From Clostridia bacterium (lineage in GTDB: Bacteria > Bacillota > Clostridia > TANB77 > CAG-465), in the NCBI GenBank assembly GCA_045536565.1, contig JAZSNU010000011.1, forward strand, positions 49,335 to 113,334: DNA of 64,000 nucleotides. Direction: 5' to 3'. This document shows, piece by piece, positions 25,930 through 33,735 of this stretch (positions are counted from its first letter, which is position 1; each line of letters opens with the position of its first letter). Under the pieces are notes generated by a model. It searched no databases and was not told the origin of the DNA. It saw only the letters and a program-made list of their open reading frames with translations. A program made the translations under genes and the position numbers.

Positions 25930-26223
25930 ATGGAAGATAAAAAAATAACACAAACAAATAAAATATTAAATCATAATATCGTAATGGAGAATAGAGAAAA
26001 AGTTATAATAACAGGAATTATAGATATTCATAGTTTTGATGATGAATTAGTTTTAACTGAAACTGAAATGGGCATACTAACAATCAAGGGAAGAGATTTA
26101 AAGATGAATAAACTAAATTTAGATAATACTGAATTAGTAGTAGAAGGTCAGATAGGAATGCTGCAATATAACGATGTGGATAGTATGAAAAAAGGCGGAA
26201 TGTTTAATAAAATATTTAAATAG
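25930..26223 (+). CDS. yabP: Sporulation protein YabP
   Basis: 97 aa. VMENREKVIITGIIDIHSFDDELVLTETEMGILTIKGRDLKMNKLNLDNTELVVEG follows the YabP family pattern. Confidence 0.75.
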   Translation: MEDKKITQTNKILNHNIVMENREKVIITGIIDIHSFDDELVLTETEMGILTIKGRDLKMNKLNLDNTELVVEGQIGMLQYNDVDSMKKGGMFNKIFK

Positions 26224-26238
26224 TAAGGGCGAAATAAA

Positions 26239-26718
26239 ATGGAGTTAAAGGAAGAAACGGTAACTTTTTTTACATTTATAATAGTGGGAATAATTATTGG
26301 TATAGTATTTGATTTTTTTAGAGCGTTAAGGAGAGTAAAAAAATATAACGAAAAATATATATGTGTTCAAGACATATTGTTTTTTATAATAATAAGTATA
26401 GTTTTGATGAGTACTTTAATATATAAATTAGAGTATAGTTTAAGACTATATTTATTTTTCTCTCTGTTTTTGGGAATAGTAATATATATTTCTACGATAA
26501 GTTCATATGTAATGAAGATATATATATCGTTTATAAAAATATTTAGTAGTATAATTTGTTTTGTATTAATGCCAATTAATATGTATAAACAATGTTTTAT
26601 GACAATATATAACTTTTTAGTAAAAAAATCAAAAAAATGTTGCAATAAATTTCATAATATGATATCTTATTTGTATAAACAGTATAAATATAAATTACAT
26701 AAGATAAAAATAAAATAA
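26239..26718 (+). CDS. yabQ: Spore cortex biosynthesis protein YabQ
   Basis: It has the DFFRALRR motif after the first TM helix and lies immediately downstream of yabP, as in Bacillus. Confidence 0.7.
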   Translation: MELKEETVTFFTFIIVGIIIGIVFDFFRALRRVKKYNEKYICVQDILFFIIISIVLMSTLIYKLEYSLRLYLFFSLFLGIVIYISTISSYVMKIYISFIKIFSSIICFVLMPINMYKQCFMTIYNFLVKKSKKCCNKFHNMISYLYKQYKYKLHKIKIK

Positions 26719-26728
26719 GAGGGAAGAA

Positions 26729-27025
26729 ATGTATAAAGGAAAAAGTAAAAAATGTAAAAGAAAACTAAACTTTACAAGAATATTACTAATTGGTGGTTTG
26801 GCATATTTTACATCTATATTTTGTGTTCAACAGTTTAAAATAAATGAATATAAAGTTCAAGAAGAATATTACAGTGAGGCTATATCAGAAATAGAACAAG
26901 AAAAAGCAGAATACCAAAATTTGGCTAGTCAGTCTGATACAGTAGAATATATAGAAAAAGTGGCAAGAGAAGAATTAGGACTAGTAAAACCATATGAAAA
27001 AATATTCATTGATGTGAATAAATAA
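26729..27025 (+). CDS. divIC: Septum formation initiator DivIC/FtsB-like
   Basis: 98 aa with a single TM and a coiled coil. It keeps the conserved yabP-yabQ-divIC order. Confidence 0.6.
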   Translation: MYKGKSKKCKRKLNFTRILLIGGLAYFTSIFCVQQFKINEYKVQEEYYSEAISEIEQEKAEYQNLASQSDTVEYIEKVAREELGLVKPYEKIFIDVNK

Positions 27026-27085: not shown

Positions 27086-27799
27086 TTCTATAAGTTTTAC
27101 AGTTACTTCATGACCGTCTGTACTTGCAGATATTTTTATATCATTTTCTCTATTATTTATAAATTTAAGGTTTGCACCACCATATAATACACTTGCATCT
27201 TTATCTTGCGGAACATAATATACGCGCCTGCTATGTGCATGCCTTTCTGTAATTTCTAGTCCTGCTATGAGAGCTGAATTATATAGTGTACTGCTTATTT
27301 GACAAATTCCTCCGCCATATATTTTTATTTTCTTTCCATTTCCGTTAAATCCTGTTGCTTCTTCATATCCTTGCTCTTTCCCCATAGGTCCTATTGTATC
27401 ATTAAAAGAAAACTCTTGTCCTTTTTCTACAATTGCTCCATCTAATTTATCAATTGCTAATGTTATATTGTGTATCCTAGATTCTTCTGTATCATATATT
27501 GTAGTTGTATAAGTAGCAATTTCTACTTCTTTCTGAGCATTTTGTATATTTATGTTTTCTGCGTTTTGATCAATAGTTATATCAATATCTCCTAAAATGT
27601 TTGTACTTTCATTTTCTTTATCATCACTAGCATTTTCATTATCCGCAACATTTATATATGAACTAGATTCTTTTACTTTGTTATCTCTTAAAGTTTTTAT
27701 CGGTGAATATGTGATTGAAATTATACCCCAAATTGTGCCACCAAGGATGGCTGTGATAAATAGAATTAAAAGAATATTTTTTATTTTTTCTTCGTTCAT
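27077..27799 (-). CDS. VanW-family protein
   Basis: N-terminal TM, then a C-terminal GGGICQISSTLYNSALIAGLEITERHAHS VanW signature. Confidence 0.7.
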   Translation of the reverse strand: MNEEKIKNILLILFITAILGGTIWGIISITYSPIKTLRDNKVKESSSYINVADNENASDDKENESTNILGDIDITIDQNAENINIQNAQKEVEIATYTTTIYDTEESRIHNITLAIDKLDGAIVEKGQEFSFNDTIGPMGKEQGYEEATGFNGNGKKIKIYGGGICQISSTLYNSALIAGLEITERHAHSRRVYYVPQDKDASVLYGGANLKFINNRENDIKISASTDGHEVTVKLIEIE

Positions 27800-27913
27800 G
27801 ATTTTCCTCCAAAATATATAAATATTCTGTGAATATATTTAATATATATACAAAGAAAAATAATAAAAAGACATTAATTGTTTTTTTAATTAATGTCTTA
27901 TACATTTTTAAAA

Positions 27914-28144
27914 TTAACACTCATTCTTATTATTGCAAAAAAACAAAATAAAAATAATTATAACTATTATAATAGGTAATATTCCAGAAAAATTAAAGCC
28001 AGTATGGCAATTATTGTTATTACCATAGTTGTTGCAAGAATTATTATTGTTATTACAATTATTTGTATTCATGTAATCATTAAAATTTGAACAATTTTTG
28101 TTTTCATCTATTACACAATTATTTGAATTATTGTCATTAAACAT
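27914..28144 (-). CDS. Asn/Cys-rich small membrane-anchored protein (76 aa)
   Basis: I set the start at the ATG at 28144, preceded by AGGAG. It translates as MFNDNNSNNCVIDENKNCSNFNDYMNTNNCNNNNNSCNNYGNNNNCHTGF..., then a TM helix ending CNNKNEC. It has 7 Cys and lies directly downstream of the peroxiredoxin on the same strand. Confidence 0.45.
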   Translation of the reverse strand: MFNDNNSNNCVIDENKNCSNFNDYMNTNNCNNNNNSCNNYGNNNNCHTGFNFSGILPIIIVIIIFILFFCNNKNEC

Positions 28145-28174
28145 ATTATCAACTCCTACTATCATATATTAAAT

Positions 28175-28891
28175 TTATTTAATTTGTTTTTTATTAAAAC
28201 AAAGATACCAATCCATACAATCATATTCCTTCATATGTTCTGCTTTTTCTAACATTTCAGCTTGATTTTTTGGAGCAGGTGATATTGTAGGCATTCCAGG
28301 AATCCAATTGGCTGGTGTTGCTACCTTATTCACATCAGATTCTTGAAGTGCTTCAACCATTCTTAGTATTTCACCAATGTTTCTACCAAGGGATGCAGGG
28401 TATTGTAAAATTGCTCTGATTTTACCTTCTGGACAAATTATATATACACTTCTTACAGTTGATTCGTTGTTATTGTTCATCATGCCATATAATTTAGCAA
28501 TTTTTGAATGTTTATCGTCTATTATTGGGAAAGGTACTTTTATACCGGTATTTTTGTAAATGTCATATACCCAAGAAAGATGTGAAGTCATATTATCAAC
28601 TGAAAGTCCAAGTAATTCACAATTTCTTTTTTTAAATTCTGGATAATATTTACTAAATGATATAAATTCGGTTGTGCATACAGGTGTGAAGTCTCCTGGA
28701 TGACAAAAAAATACAAGCCATTTCCCTTTATAATCACTTAACTTACATTCACCAAATGTTGTATTTGCACTAAAATCTGGTGCTTTATTTTCGATCATTA
28801 AGCATTTTGAGTTACATTCGTTATATGTATAATTTTTATTATCTAGCATATTTGAGCAATATCTTGCGTTTTCATCGTTAATATAATCCAT
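28175..28891 (-). CDS. Peroxiredoxin (Prx/AhpC-TSA family) with a Cys-rich N-terminal extension
   Basis: I set the start at the ATG at 28891, preceded by GGAGG. FTPVCTTE is the peroxidatic Cys motif. The N-terminal 30 aa carry 3 extra Cys (CSNMLD...YNECNSKC). Confidence 0.8.
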   Translation of the reverse strand: MDYINDENARYCSNMLDNKNYTYNECNSKCLMIENKAPDFSANTTFGECKLSDYKGKWLVFFCHPGDFTPVCTTEFISFSKYYPEFKKRNCELLGLSVDNMTSHLSWVYDIYKNTGIKVPFPIIDDKHSKIAKLYGMMNNNNESTVRSVYIICPEGKIRAILQYPASLGRNIGEILRMVEALQESDVNKVATPANWIPGMPTISPAPKNQAEMLEKAEHMKEYDCMDWYLCFNKKQIK

Positions 28892-29161
28892 ATATTTACC
28901 TCCTAATATATGGTATACATTGGACAAAAAACATGTTACAAAAAAATAAAATATGGGAAAAAATTTGGCAACCAAATACATATTGATTGTTAGATGTATT
29001 TAAGAGTCAAAATGGTGAAAATTGTTTAATATGTTGTGAAAATACATAAAACTATTCTGAATAATAAATTATAATTTTAAAATAACATTTTTAATTGTTA
29101 CAAACAATATAAAAAAATATTTCCTCTTTTTAATATACAATAATTTCAGGGAGAGGATAGT

Positions 29162-29788
29162 ATGGTAGAAAAAATTAGTAATAGTATTCTTAACATATTA
29201 TCTGATAAAGATGATTCAGAGGAACAAAAAGAAATATTACTTTTTGGAATAACTAGGATAGTAGAAGATATACCTAAGTATATAGGTATGATTATAATTT
29301 GCTTGTTATTAGGAGTAATAAAAGAATTTGCCATTGTTATGGGTGTAACTATAATATATAAAACTTTTACTGGTGGGGTACACTTACATACAAATATTGG
29401 GTGCTTTATAGGGTCTCTTCTATCAGTTCTGTGTTGTATTTACTTACCAATTTTATTAATAGAATTTACCAATTTGATAATACCGTTTTATGTATTTGTA
29501 TATATCTTCTCGATATATGTAATATTGGTTTATGTACCAGCGGATGTTCCTGAAATTCCTATAATAAATAAGGGAAGAAGAAAAAGGGATAAGATTATGT
29601 CTTTTATTATACTAAACTTATTATACATATTATGTTTGTTTGTTATAAAAAATCCAGTATATGTAGGTATAGTTTTGGTAACGATTTTAAATATAGACAT
29701 AATGACAACTAGAACAATATATAAATTATTTAAAAATGAATATGGGTATGAAACATATGTCCCAGATGAGCTATTAATGACAGAGTAA
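29162..29788 (+). CDS. agrB: AgrB-family AIP processing/export membrane peptidase
   Basis: Multi-TM 208-aa protein with the conserved FTGGVH (GGxH) and C-x-x-x-S region of AgrB. RBS GGGAGAGG is upstream. Confidence 0.75.
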   Translation: MVEKISNSILNILSDKDDSEEQKEILLFGITRIVEDIPKYIGMIIICLLLGVIKEFAIVMGVTIIYKTFTGGVHLHTNIGCFIGSLLSVLCCIYLPILLIEFTNLIIPFYVFVYIFSIYVILVYVPADVPEIPIINKGRRKRDKIMSFIILNLLYILCLFVIKNPVYVGIVLVTILNIDIMTTRTIYKLFKNEYGYETYVPDELLMTE

Positions 29789-29855
29789 TTTTACTAACCA
29801 TGGGGTAAGATTATCTGTTTTTAATATATATAAATGATTTTTAGGAGGTATTTTA

Positions 29856-29970
29856 TATGAAATCATTATTAAGAAAAATAGCAAAAACATATGCTAAATC
29901 AACAACTAATACTTGCTTAGCATGGATGTTCCACGCAAACAAAGCTCCAAGAACTTTAATAAAAAAATAA
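29856..29970 (+). pseudogene. agrD: AgrD-like autoinducing-peptide precursor, reading frame apparently broken in an A6 run
   Basis: The ATG at 29856 follows AGGAGG. As written it reads MKSLLRKNSKNIC-stop. The +1 frame starting at 29872 continues ...IAKTYAKSTTNTCLAWMFHANKAPRTLIKK-stop. One fewer A in agaaaaaat at 29871-79 restores a canonical 37-aa AgrD: an amphipathic leader, the Cys-containing core TCLAWMF, and a charged P-x-x-L tail. Confidence 0.55.
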
Positions 29971-29991
29971 CAAGAATATATATTTAAAATA

Positions 29992-30029
29992 TTAGCAAGC
30001 CTCTAAATTACACAAAGAGGCTTGCTTAA
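29992..30029. terminator. Bidirectional terminator between agrD and agrC
   Basis: ttagcaagcctct...agaggcttgcttaa 13-14-bp inverted repeat. Confidence 0.6.
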
Positions 30030-30031
30030 TG

Positions 30032-31378
30032 TTATTTATCGAATGTTAATGTTTGTGTAAAGAACTTGGTATCATAGTCAACATTTGGAACAATATCACC
30101 TTTGTTGTTTTTCTTGAAGAATTTAAGAACTTCATATAGCCCAAAACCAGAAGGGTTTTCTTTTGTAGAATAGTCTTTTTCAAACATTTTAATTACATCT
30201 ATTTTACTAGGATTTTTAACAGAATTACCTATTATGATAACATCTTGTTTTCTATTTTCATCATAATACATTTCTAATTTTAGTTTTCTATCTTTGGATT
30301 CTAATGCTGCTTCAATTGCATTATCAAGCAATATACCAATTATTCTTGATAACTCGAAACTTGGAAAATTAATTTTTGCTACATCGCATGCTATATCAAG
30401 AGAAAGTGTTAGATTATTATCTCTTGCATAAAGCATTTTACTAACTACTACACCATATATAGCAGGGTCGTTAATTACCTTTGGTGATAATATTGATAGT
30501 AGGTTAATATCATTAAAACCATGTAATAGATTTTTACAATATGATTTTACACCATCAATATTTCCAACAGCTAGGTAACCGTTTATCGATTGAACCATAT
30601 TACCCATATCATGCTTAAAACCACGAATATTTTCATTTATTGTTGCTAATGCTTTATTATGGAGTTTTGTATTTTCTAATTCCAGTTCTGTATCTTTAAA
30701 AAGAGTCCTTTTTTCCATATACCAAAAAGAAAAAATAGAAACAACTAATAATTGAATTGTATTTATAATTACAAAAGTAGCAGGATAATTATAATCATTT
30801 GAAAACATGAAGAACATTGTAGGCATTAATGTTAAAATAATTATAAGTCCTTCATATAATATAAATTTATAGTTGATTTTTCTTGTTTTAACAAAAATTT
30901 TATTTAACTTATACCTAATTGCTTTATCTATGCAAAGAATAAAGATTCCATAAATTAGGCTAGTTATAATGCTAATAGTATAATATATAAATTTATTATT
31001 AATAATACTATCCATAGAATCAACAAATACTGATAATATTATAACTGTTATCATATCAAATATAAATGGTATAAAAACACCAATTACAGAGATTATTATG
31101 GATTTAATTATATTTGCATGAAATACAAAATGTGCTATAAGACAAGAGGTTATAATTATTATAGTAGGTTTTATAAAAGATACATCTATCAAATATGTAT
31201 GTAGAAATGTTGCAAACAATGCAATTGGAAGCATATATAAAAAACTTACAAACAGTTTTTTATAACGGTAAACTTCTTTACATATAATGTTTGCTAATAC
31301 ATAAATAGTATAAACTTGTGTAAATGATACTATAATTGTAGATATGATATACAATAAAATTTCTAATAATTTTTCCAT
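30032..31378 (-). CDS. agrC: AgrC-like (HPK10 subfamily) membrane sensor histidine kinase
   Basis: 6-7 N-terminal TM helices, an H-box RGFKHDMGN, and C-terminal GHKL N/G boxes (LLDNAIEA, GFGLYEV). Confidence 0.75.
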   Translation of the reverse strand: MEKLLEILLYIISTIIVSFTQVYTIYVLANIICKEVYRYKKLFVSFLYMLPIALFATFLHTYLIDVSFIKPTIIIITSCLIAHFVFHANIIKSIIISVIGVFIPFIFDMITVIILSVFVDSMDSIINNKFIYYTISIITSLIYGIFILCIDKAIRYKLNKIFVKTRKINYKFILYEGLIIILTLMPTMFFMFSNDYNYPATFVIINTIQLLVVSIFSFWYMEKRTLFKDTELELENTKLHNKALATINENIRGFKHDMGNMVQSINGYLAVGNIDGVKSYCKNLLHGFNDINLLSILSPKVINDPAIYGVVVSKMLYARDNNLTLSLDIACDVAKINFPSFELSRIIGILLDNAIEAALESKDRKLKLEMYYDENRKQDVIIIGNSVKNPSKIDVIKMFEKDYSTKENPSGFGLYEVLKFFKKNNKGDIVPNVDYDTKFFTQTLTFDK

Positions 31379-31399
31379 AATTTATAATTCCTTTCTATA

Positions 31400-32074
31400 T
31401 TAAGTTATATTTCCCATTGGACAAGAGATAGATTCGGTGAAAAACACTTTACTATCTAGTTTGTTAACTTCTGTTATTGCTTCGGTATTAATAATATATG
31501 ATCTATGATTTCTAATAAAAATATCATTAGGTAGTGTTTTATAAATATTATTAAGTGACATAGAGGATTCATAAACACAGTTCCTAGCATGTATATAGGT
31601 TTTATTAAATTTTCTTTCAATAAAGAAAATATCATTTGCCCTAATAGATAGACCTCTTTTTATGTTTATAAATACTTTGTTTTCAGAAGATGAAAATTCT
31701 TCTTTAAACCTATTAAATATAGCTGTAAGTGCAGAAGTTGAAATAGGTTTAAGTAAATAATCAAAAGTTTTACATTTGAAAGATAATAATGAATATTCGT
31801 AATGTGCAGTAAGAAATACTAAATAGAAATTCTTGTTTATTTTTCTTAAATCTGTTGCAAATTCAACACCATTTTTACCACCATTTTGAAAATCCACATC
31901 TAAAAATAATATATCTATATTGTTATTTTTAATTTCATCATAAATTATATTTTGGTTATCCGTTACAGTTGTAATTTCAGCATCTATATCTAGTTCAATT
32001 ATTATTGATTCCATAAGTTTTGCAATGTTTTCGATACTCTTTAAGTTATCATCACATAAAGCAATTTTTAACAT
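31400..32074 (-). CDS. agrA: AgrA-like LytTR-family response regulator
   Basis: N-terminal receiver (MLKIALCDDN...FLDVDF) and a C-terminal LytTR DNA-binding domain. The gene is immediately upstream of agrC on the same strand. Confidence 0.75.
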   Translation of the reverse strand: MLKIALCDDNLKSIENIAKLMESIIIELDIDAEITTVTDNQNIIYDEIKNNNIDILFLDVDFQNGGKNGVEFATDLRKINKNFYLVFLTAHYEYSLLSFKCKTFDYLLKPISTSALTAIFNRFKEEFSSSENKVFINIKRGLSIRANDIFFIERKFNKTYIHARNCVYESSMSLNNIYKTLPNDIFIRNHRSYIINTEAITEVNKLDSKVFFTESISCPMGNIT

Positions 32075-32245
32075 TAATTTTTACCTCTTTTTTCCAATTT
32101 TATATATTATATAATAATACAAAATTCTAGAAAAATCAACAATAAAATAGTAAACTGACAGTTGCTAAAATAACGCTGGGAGTAACAAAAAAACTTTCAT
32201 AAAATTTAAAAAACAATAATAATATGTATATAGGAGGAATAGTAT

Positions 32246-32542
32246 ATGGCGTGGCTTAGAAACAATATAAAAGAGGTAAATGAGAAGATTAGAGATAAAA
32301 TAAATAAGGTGTTAGAATTACCAACTGAAATGGTAGGTGATACGCTTAGAGTTATAACAATAAATAATGAATATGTGCTAATCGAGGGAAAAAGTAAAGT
32401 AGCAGATTATTTTGATAATTATATAAAAATAAAAACAGAAAAATATACCATTGGTATTGATGGTAGTAATTTAATCATAAAAGAAATAAGTGATATTGAT
32501 TTAATAATAAGTGGGGAAATAAACAACATTTCTTATGTGTAA
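32246..32542 (+). CDS. yqfC: Sporulation protein YqfC (YabP family)
   Basis: 98 aa YabP-like fold. RBS AGGAGG is upstream. It is followed by yqfD, as in the B. subtilis yqfCD-phoH-ybeY-dgkA-cdd-era-recO cluster. Confidence 0.65.
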   Translation: MAWLRNNIKEVNEKIRDKINKVLELPTEMVGDTLRVITINNEYVLIEGKSKVADYFDNYIKIKTEKYTIGIDGSNLIIKEISDIDLIISGEINNISYV

Positions 32543-32556
32543 TATGAGGAGATAAT

Positions 32557-33735
32557 ATGAAAATAAGTAAATTAACAGATAAATTTAAAAAAGGAACAAT
32601 AATTGTAGAGGTAGAAGGATTTTTTGTTGAAAGGTTTTTAAATCTATGTAAGAATAACAATATAGAAATACATGATGTAAAATACATAACAGCAGGAATT
32701 ATAACTTTTAGAATAAGCTCAAATAAGTTTACTCATATTAGAAAAATTGCAAATAAAACTAAATGTAAAGCAAAAATAAAAAAGAAAAAAGGTATATACT
32801 TTGTGCTATTTAGGTATAAAAAAAGAAGAATGTTTTTCTTTTTATTTTTACTAGTGATACTTGCTTTAATTACTTTATCTACATTTGTTTTAAAGATAAA
32901 TATAACTGGAAATAGTAATGTAAGTAATAAAGAAATTTTAGACATCTTAAAAGAAGCAGATGTGTATGTTGGTAAAAACCGTCTGTTTATAGATGAAAGA
33001 AAAGCAGGTAATATGTTAAGAACTAAACTTTATGACATAGCATGGGTAGGTATAGATATAAAAGGAACAAATGTGAATGTTGAAATTGTCGAAAAAACAC
33101 TAATAGAAGATGATGAAAATAAAAATGCGGTAGGTAATATAGTAGCAAATAAATCTGGTATTATAACAAAAATAATTGCAGAAAATGGTACTCCTAGACT
33201 TCTTACTGGTAGTTATATTGAAAAGGGAATGACAGCAATTGAAGGTGTTATAGAAAGTGAATTGATAGGAAATGTAAATGTAAAAGCAAGTGGAATACTA
33301 AGAGTGAAAAGTTCTCATACATTTGAAACTTATGAAAAATATGTTATAGAAGAAAAAGTATATACAAAGAAGAAAAAATATGGTGTAGGAATTAGTATTA
33401 ATGATAAACAATTTACATTAAAATATTTGCCAAAAGAATATATTTATGATATAAATAAAAAAGAGAAAGAATTTAAAATATTTGGCACTTCTATTAAGAT
33501 TATGCTATTTAAATATCCACAATATAATTTAGTGAAGAAAACTAGAACAATTGAGGGGTTACAAGAGATATGTAAAAATAAATATATAGAATATATTAAT
33601 AGTATAATTGATATCGATATGTCTTTACTAAATGAAAAAGTTGAGGTTGTAAAACAAGACGATGGAATAAAATATATAGTTACATATGATTTAGAGGAAG
33701 ATGCAGGTAAATTTCAAAAAACAGGAGAAAAATAG
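32557..33735 (+). CDS. yqfD: Stage IV sporulation protein YqfD
   Basis: 392 aa with a central single TM (FFFLFLLVILALITL). The size and position match YqfD. Confidence 0.6.
   Translation: MKISKLTDKFKKGTIIVEVEGFFVERFLNLCKNNNIEIHDVKYITAGIITFRISSNKFTHIRKIANKTKCKAKIKKKKGIYFVLFRYKKRRMFFFLFLLVILALITLSTFVLKINITGNSNVSNKEILDILKEADVYVGKNRLFIDERKAGNMLRTKLYDIAWVGIDIKGTNVNVEIVEKTLIEDDENKNAVGNIVANKSGIITKIIAENGTPRLLTGSYIEKGMTAIEGVIESELIGNVNVKASGILRVKSSHTFETYEKYVIEEKVYTKKKKYGVGISINDKQFTLKYLPKEYIYDINKKEKEFKIFGTSIKIMLFKYPQYNLVKKTRTIEGLQEICKNKYIEYINSIIDIDMSLLNEKVEVVKQDDGIKYIVTYDLEEDAGKFQKTGEK

Follow-up and report, generated by a model that had tools for sequence, protein, structure and literature searches.

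A complete, probably working agr-type quorum-sensing locus with two converging arms from an uncultured gut Clostridia bacterium

Four neighboring genes of an uncultured, low-GC gut Clostridia bacterium raise the question of whether an agrB-agrD pair and a two-component system, facing each other across a short gap, make up a single peptide quorum-sensing system. The genes lie in a stretch of 64,000 nucleotides (nt) of contig JAZSNU010000011.1 (assembly GCA_045536565.1), which we call the window. It has a GC content of ~26%, and gene coordinates were taken from its list of open reading frames (ORFs). A first-pass annotation had described an agr-type locus here, with agrB and an agrD-like gene on the plus strand and a LytTR regulator and an HPK10-type kinase on the minus strand. 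We conclude that the locus is a complete and probably working agr-type peptide quorum-sensing system. Judged from its sequence, it can be read with high confidence as a self-contained module for a cyclic-peptide signal, organized as two converging transcription units.

The four genes and their products

The locus comprises the following genes, with product lengths in amino acids (aa).

29162-29788, plus strand: agrB, membrane endopeptidase/cyclase, 208 aa
29857-29970, plus strand: agrD, 37-aa autoinducer precursor
30032-31378, minus strand: agrC-like HPK10 histidine kinase, 448 aa
31400-32074, minus strand: agrA-like LytTR response regulator, 224 aa

Relative to staphylococcal agrBDCA, the first-pass annotation had proposed an inverted order, regulator and then kinase, and a convergent arrangement, and both are borne out by the ORF coordinates. 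On the minus strand, 21 nt separate the regulator gene from the kinase gene downstream of it, and the two probably form one operon; the stop codons of agrD and the kinase gene, where the arms converge, are 61 nt apart.

The interval that had been assigned to agrB corresponds exactly to an ORF, and its product matches Pfam PF04647 at 106.8 bits (cutoff 23, E=1.1e-30). The protein has several hydrophobic segments, and its His74 and Cys81, 7 residues apart, lie within GGVHLHTNIGC, a GGVH-x6-C motif that is invariant in 6 orthologues. The same His-Cys spacing separates H77 and C84, the catalytic pair of S. aureus AgrB. Closer relatives have AgrB proteins that are ~70-93% identical to that of the window, and AgrB relatives carry the NCBI name “accessory gene regulator B family protein.”

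The agrD-like gene of the first-pass annotation is a 37-aa ORF, encoding MKSLLRKIAKTYAKSTTNTCLAWMFHANKAPRTLIKK, that begins 68 nt after agrB and whose start is preceded at 8 nt by an AGGAGG ribosome-binding site. The product has an amphipathic leader (hydrophobic moment 0.59, against a shuffle mean of 0.29), the core C20-LAWMF, an invariant His26, and the tail KAPRTLIKK. Nine orthologues of 36-37 aa could be aligned without internal gaps. Across these nine loci, the leader (MK.LL.KI...YAKSTTNT) and tail (H...P[KR].LIK) are conserved, and the core, [C/S]x5 before the His, is hypervariable. Compared with S. aureus AgrD-I, the window peptide is shorter (37 aa), its tail is basic rather than acidic, and one more residue stands between the Cys and the conserved Pro. 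The conserved [C/S]x5-His, with its one additional residue before the Pro relative to staphylococcal AgrD, may mean a six-residue macrocycle, and a ring of either five or six residues could be formed. Related loci are designated here by numbers with the prefix L. In the AgrD orthologues of L001 (7389-7502) and L009 (4384-4497), Ser replaces the cyclization Cys (TNTSLMWWL and TNTSFAWLF, respectively); from sequence, these would be predicted to yield lactone rather than thiolactone signals inside one lineage.

One result that weighs against an agr assignment is that the window AgrD matched no Pfam or NCBIfam model, even at E<=10, as would be expected if the 37-aa ORF had arisen by chance and the locus were without a functional peptide gene. 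We find this hardly credible given the strong ribosome-binding site and the equal length and position of the ORF in 9 loci, across which its ends are conserved and its core varies. Its C-x10-P-[KR]-x-L architecture has the same spacing as that of AgrDs annotated on Clostridium plasmids. Furthermore, orthologues match the TIGR04223 quorum_AgrD model, that of L006 at 19.9 bits, which passes the cutoff of 19, and that of L004 at 18.4 bits. The conservation pattern effectively refutes a chance ORF.

The HPK10-type assignment of the minus-strand kinase, given earlier along with its FKHDMGN H-box, agrees with our NCBIfam and PDB comparisons, which mark it as AgrC-like. Among NCBIfam models, staphylococcal AgrC ranks first and aligns with almost the entire protein, the membrane half included (E=1.6e-29), at a score far short of the equivalog cutoff. 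By sequence, the only PDB entries that the kinase matches are those of S. aureus AgrC, in which FRHDYVN lines up with FKHDMGN. The protein carries HATPase_c_5 (Pfam, E=1.3e-10), His256 within the H-box, the N-box LLDNAIEA, and GFGL. It has ~7 hydrophobic segments in residues 1-218, giving a polytopic sensor at ~1-220. The regulator, also as annotated, combines Response_reg (E=2.1e-10) and LytTR (E=1.3e-16) domains in Pfam, and the receiver residues D8, D9, D59, T89, and K109 are present. Like the kinase, it scores far below its staphylococcal equivalog cutoff, reaching 49.5 bits against the AgrA model (cutoff 400).

The kinase as the probable receptor of the AgrD peptide

The kinase is without a close relative among cultured species; its best reference-genome matches are three uncultured Clostridia gut metagenome-assembled genomes at ~60% identity (L001-L003). 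The protein database holds hundreds of metagenomic relatives, and NCBI protein P0001 is identical to the window kinase; an exact-sequence look-up of the kinase returned no contig. The convergent layout of regulator-kinase and agrB-agrD genes was present in every one of the 13 related loci covering all four genes, including those with as little as 40% kinase identity (L001-L004, L006, L008-L010, and L017, plus L011-L013 from plasmids). The chromosomal loci are flanked by yqfC-yqfD-ybeY-dgkA on one side and by peroxiredoxin, VanW, and divIC-yabQ-yabP genes on the other. The neighbors in the window encode a peroxiredoxin, VanW, YabP/YabQ/DivIC, YqfC/YqfD, YbeY, a diacylglycerol kinase, and a cytidine deaminase. 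Because both layout and flanks are kept across relatives, the locus is a stable, vertically inherited feature of the lineage and not a recent insertion.

Within this conserved setting, hypervariability is limited to the AgrD core and the kinase sensor. The sensor half of the kinase is 32-36% identical to those of closer relatives and the kinase half 84-90%; regulator identities to the window are 74-95% (L001 and L010). The closest relative is L010, the flanks of which are ~91% nucleotide-identical to the window. Between these two, a large drop in identity, to 53-67%, is found only over 30740-31300, the sensor-coding half of the kinase gene, with lesser decreases over the agrD core and the middle of agrB. 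The L010 sensor is 36% identical to that of the window and is nearest (51%) to those of L003/L008, with which L010 shares an xGWFF AgrD core. This variation of sensor and core is the pattern of agr specificity groups, which argues against a separate kinase/regulator system, and the kinase is very likely, from these comparisons, the cognate receptor of the AgrD peptide.

Three results point the other way. Identities of AgrD core and sensor over all 36 locus pairs gave a rho of 0.25 (p 0.15), which is not significant, and the argument from co-variation therefore rests on the comparison of L010, L003, and the window. The regulator scores no better against the AgrA model than against BtsR or LytR, all well below cutoffs. 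Its PDB sequence matches do not include S. aureus AgrA, and the best of them over the full length is ComE. By these scores, the regulator is a generic LytTR regulator and not an equivalog of staphylococcal AgrA.

Such a regulator is also what would be expected if the kinase and regulator were an independent LytTR two-component system beside an orphan agrBD pair, with the AgrD receptor elsewhere, as for C. difficile Agr1 and RgaSR. Clostridia often have orphan agrBD pairs (PMC8534292, PMC8748961), and the arms here are separate transcription units. We nevertheless regard this arrangement as very unlikely, given a kinase that is AgrC-like over its full length, a sensor half that is hypervariable in step with the AgrD core, and four genes that are unseparated in the 13 related loci. 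In addition, the neighborhood has no double-glycine peptide, C39-peptidase ABC exporter, or immunity gene, and the 64-kb window holds no second AgrB, kinase, or regulator paralogue. The first-pass annotation had itself allowed that the pair might belong to a different LytTR system, such as ComDE or BlpHR, with a peptide gene of its own; the AgrC-like kinase, the co-variation of sensor and core, and the unbroken four-gene linkage speak for the opposite. An assignment to the ComDE/BlpHR type was rejected on the neighbors too, there being no space for a further peptide gene beside the kinase-regulator arm.

With the kinase as cognate receptor, signaling could proceed as follows. AgrB, through His74 and Cys81, would cut off the C-terminal tail of AgrD and cyclize the core through Cys20 into a (thio)lactone. 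A second protease would take off the amphipathic leader, and the peptide would be released. The AgrC-like kinase would sense the peptide through its polytopic N-terminal half and autophosphorylate on His256, from which the phosphate would pass to Asp59 of the LytTR regulator.

Candidate control elements and the junction between the arms

Four elements were located in the spacers of the locus.

29013-29043, plus strand: candidate LytTR (AgrA-like) binding site, a direct repeat found by custom scan
29047-29082, plus strand: candidate activator-dependent agrBD core promoter, with a weak -35 and the -10 candidates TATAAT (29070-29075) and TAAAAT (29077-29082)
32111-32139, minus strand: candidate sigma-A promoter for constitutive transcription of the regulator and kinase genes (TTGATT, 17 nt, TATTAT), from a consensus scan
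29994-30026, both strands: hairpin, probable bidirectional terminator, from folding against shuffles

The first-pass annotation had suggested that LytTR direct repeats be sought upstream of both arms. They are present upstream of agrB and absent upstream of the regulator gene. The agrB repeat consists of TGGTGAAAAT (29013-29022) and TTGTGAAAAT (29034-29043), 21 bp start to start, with the consensus T(G/T)GTGAAAAT. A general repeat search upstream of agrB had reported no direct repeat, and the pair was found by the custom scan. The exact pair GTGAAAAT-N13-GTGAAAAT occurs once in the window, which has seven single GTGAAAAT sites, all on the plus strand. The repeat is conserved: in 9 of 9 chromosomal loci examined, a [G/A]TGAAA pair stands at -148 to -151 and -127 to -132 from the agrB start, within spacers that are otherwise diverged and AT-rich. 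A point against an operator is that the repeat spacing among relatives, 19-22 bp, is not constant. When four Clostridium plasmid loci were searched for direct repeats ahead of agrB, only one clear pair emerged, ATGTC(A/G)TTC at 21 bp in L012.

The direct repeat fits the geometry of a LytTR operator, from which we infer binding by the regulator. In C. difficile, the LytTR regulator RgaR activates agrB1D1 via VirR-like direct repeats, in a circuit that controls sporulation, and at the spoZ promoter the G residues critical for RgaR are at -51 and -72, i.e., 21 bp apart (PMC10602386). RgaSR is unlinked to agrB1D1, whereas the window kinase and regulator are linked to agrBD. Just downstream of the repeat, the agrBD promoter region contains TTTAAAAT, common to the window and its close relative L010, and may serve as an activator-dependent core promoter. 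Phosphorylated regulator, on the two GTGAAAAT repeats, would then activate agrBD and provide positive feedback on signal production; any further regulon would be hypothetical.

Upstream of the regulator gene, a block of the form TTG(A/C)-...-TATTAT/TATGAT is conserved in orthologous spacers. A GTGAAA-type direct repeat was sought in the window and in these spacers and was found in none. The regulator-kinase operon would thus be transcribed from its own sigma-A-like promoter without such repeats, so that signal production would be autoinduced and the receptor arm constitutive. The spacer that the regulator-kinase operon shares with divergent yqfC also contains the palindrome AACT-N3-AGTT (32153-32163), upstream of the operon's -35. 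The palindrome is shared by the window and L001-L003, with a degenerate form in L006, and could be the site of another regulator.

Between the arms, the first-pass annotation had proposed a shared bidirectional terminator at 29992-30029. A stable hairpin is indeed present in the gap, with an 11-bp GC-rich stem (29994-30004/30016-30026) and an 11-nt loop. Its folding energy is -21.1 kcal/mol on the plus strand and -18.7 kcal/mol on the minus strand (z -5.9 and -3.9, respectively); none of the 200 shuffles was as good. The U-tracts are modest or weak on both strands, and a consensus terminator scan did not call the hairpin, both of which count against a terminator, though the 11-nt loop and the weak U-tracts explain why a simple scan would miss it. 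A strong hairpin of different sequence occupies the same junction in L001-L004 and L006, with two hairpins in the more distant L004 and L006, and a hairpin is also found at the junction of the convergent Clostridium plasmid loci. We consider it probable that the hairpin is a bidirectional terminator that insulates both converging arms.

The weak U-tracts, together with the single hairpin and the gap of only 61 nt between the arms, also raise the possibility that the converging layout is itself regulatory. In this case, agrBD transcripts reading past a leaky hairpin would form antisense RNA to the kinase-regulator operon or collide with its transcription, and negative feedback or bistability would be added to ordinary agr signaling. 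The tight convergent junction recurs in relatives and on the Clostridium plasmids, where the gap is 6-8 nt. However, a strong hairpin is kept at every junction checked, and is doubled in L004 and L006, which favors insulation over antisense interference; we judge a regulatory role of the layout to be unlikely.

Known agr systems and an extra base in related regulator genes

The locus resembles S. aureus agrBDCA in its four components, the 7-residue spacing of His and Cys in AgrB, an H-box that aligns with that of AgrC, the phospho-acceptor Asp59, direct repeats at a 21-bp period upstream of agrB, and the restriction of hypervariability to the peptide core and kinase sensor. It differs in that two units converge here, with the regulator before the kinase, in place of a single operon, and in that the receptor arm is not visibly autoinduced, the regulator gene having no repeat before it. 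Here, a peroxiredoxin is encoded divergently from agrB, and an Rfam search over 27500-33000 gave no match and no RNAIII-like effector RNA. Moreover, the agrD core and the 5' half of the kinase gene, contiguous in S. aureus, are split here by ~0.8 kb of conserved kinase-domain sequence.

As the first-pass annotation had suggested, we compared the locus with annotated clostridial agr loci, using tblastn of AgrB against plasmids, which recovered annotated agr loci of Clostridium, and examining six plasmid loci. Three of the six have the exact convergent, regulator-first architecture (C. estertheticum NZ_CP086251 and NZ_CP087101, and C. tagluense NZ_CP086156). In these, agrB-agrD on one strand converges on a GHKL kinase gene preceded by a LytTR regulator gene, with a hairpin at the junction, and AgrD has the C-x10-P-K-x-L spacing seen in the window. 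Their AgrB proteins are only 26-31% identical to that of the window, and the loci are plasmid-borne, adjoining ABC-transporter or radical-SAM genes, whereas the window locus is chromosomal and lies between sporulation genes. The other three comprise a colinear C. taeniosporum agrBDCA, a colinear E. raffinosus locus, and one C. estertheticum plasmid with a third arrangement. The kinase of the clostridial phage agr3 was not found in the phage collection, where matches were distant and came from Staphylococcus, Listeria, and Enterococcus.

The layout is unusual only relative to Staphylococcus. It is not new: it is present in annotated genomes of cultured Clostridium, on the plasmids above, and a regulator-first order has been published for C. 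difficile agr2, where agrACDB is “in the reverse order” from S. aureus (PMC3754575, PMC8534292). The likeness to agr2 concerns the published gene order alone, as those sources do not state whether the orientation is convergent or colinear. Indeed, agr2 is discussed as a possible single agrACDB transcript (PMC3754575), in contrast to the two converging arms of the window. For C. acetobutylicum, PMC3754575 cites agrBD and agrCA as predicted separate transcription units. Production and reception units are thus separate, as here, but their order is colinear B-D-C-A rather than convergent and regulator-first.

Autoinducing-peptide families are abundant in human gut microbiomes (PMC11953309). With this locus, a well-resolved agr system becomes available from a low-GC, spore-forming lineage of uncultured gut Clostridia. 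The system offers natural pherotype diversity, with many AgrD cores, a Cys/Ser switch, and sensors ~33% identical, plus a clean candidate operator. This makes it convenient for studying signal-receptor co-evolution with non-contiguous variable parts and for synthesizing candidate gut autoinducing peptides. Known agr architecture is unchanged by it, and the sole element likely to surprise a specialist is a possible recoding site, found outside the window in relatives. Nine alleles of the regulator gene, from at least six lineages, are 3n+1 nt long, as listed here.

L002, 5310-5985: regulator gene with extra base
L003, 5307-5982: regulator gene with extra base
L008, 2307-2982: regulator gene with extra base
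L017 and L018, 3293-3965: regulator genes with extra base
L020, 17-692: regulator gene with extra base
L021, 1311-1986: regulator gene with extra base
L023, 542-1217: regulator gene with extra base
L024, 524-1199: regulator gene with extra base

The extra base always lies directly 5' of GG(A/T)AAAAA, giving the site NNN-[C/A]GG-(A/T)AAAAA. In the 0 frame, this places an Arg codon, CGG (AGG in L018), ahead of a stop within 1-7 codons; the +1 frame has a Gly codon, and the conserved GKNGVEF is regained when the extra base is skipped. At this point, the window has the in-frame allele (GGT GGT AAA AAT, near 31875-31890 on the minus strand). Among the 14,942 codons of the long ORFs in the window, only 2 are CGG. 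The split form makes up six 90%-identity protein clusters on >15 contigs from independent samples and assemblers, and in a simple tree the split alleles are not monophyletic. We calculated the ratio of nonsynonymous to synonymous differences (pN/pS) for the downstream part with the extra base removed, obtaining 0.06 for L003-L008 (4 nonsynonymous, 18 synonymous), 0.14 for L003-L021, and 0.16 for L002-L024. Pairs of intact regulators are comparable, at 0.08 for the window and L010 and 0.14 for L001-L009. Both halves of the split gene are under purifying selection (pN/pS 0.06-0.16).

The best, though tentative, explanation is that in at least six lineages the agrA-like protein is made via a programmed +1 frameshift at a nearly unused, “hungry” Arg codon, in which case the quorum-sensing response would be gated at translation. 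The gene might instead encode a split protein, or it might undergo recurrent, reversible inactivation like that of S. aureus agr phase variants (PMC6686034). No start codon is conserved for the downstream ORF (ATG in L003, ACG in L008, and none in L017 and L018), and two metagenome pattern scans for the frameshift site gave no matches. In L017 and L018, contigs of one study, yqfD is also called as two ORFs (167 and 216 aa) at 1634-2810. Whether through a real disruption or a systematic assembly error, the split of yqfD calls for caution over the frameshift in that lineage.

As to the wider neighborhood, the agr locus stands between two sporulation gene groups, yabP-yabQ-divIC (25930-27025) and yqfC-yqfD (32246-33735). 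A link between quorum sensing and sporulation is suggested by these flanking genes alone. In the spore-forming C. acetobutylicum, agr is reported to affect sporulation (Steiner et al. 2012).

The peroxiredoxin gene divergent from agrB (28175-28981, minus strand) encodes a 1-Cys protein with AhpC-TSA and 1-cysPrx_C domains. This divergent arrangement is also seen in L001-L003, L008-L010, and L017, and not in L004 and L006. Its ORF probably starts too far upstream, as orthologues begin with MD(Y/N)IN(D/E)EN, at ~28891 in the window. Any redox link between this protein and the LytTR regulator would be speculation. Directly 3' of the peroxiredoxin gene lies a conserved small ORF of 62-83 aa (window 27914-28165, minus strand; L003 9178-9366; L001 9153-9359; L002 9171-9410), the product of which is rich in Asn and Cys in its N-terminal part, has a hydrophobic segment in its C-terminal part, and ends in the motif CNN(K/N)NEC.

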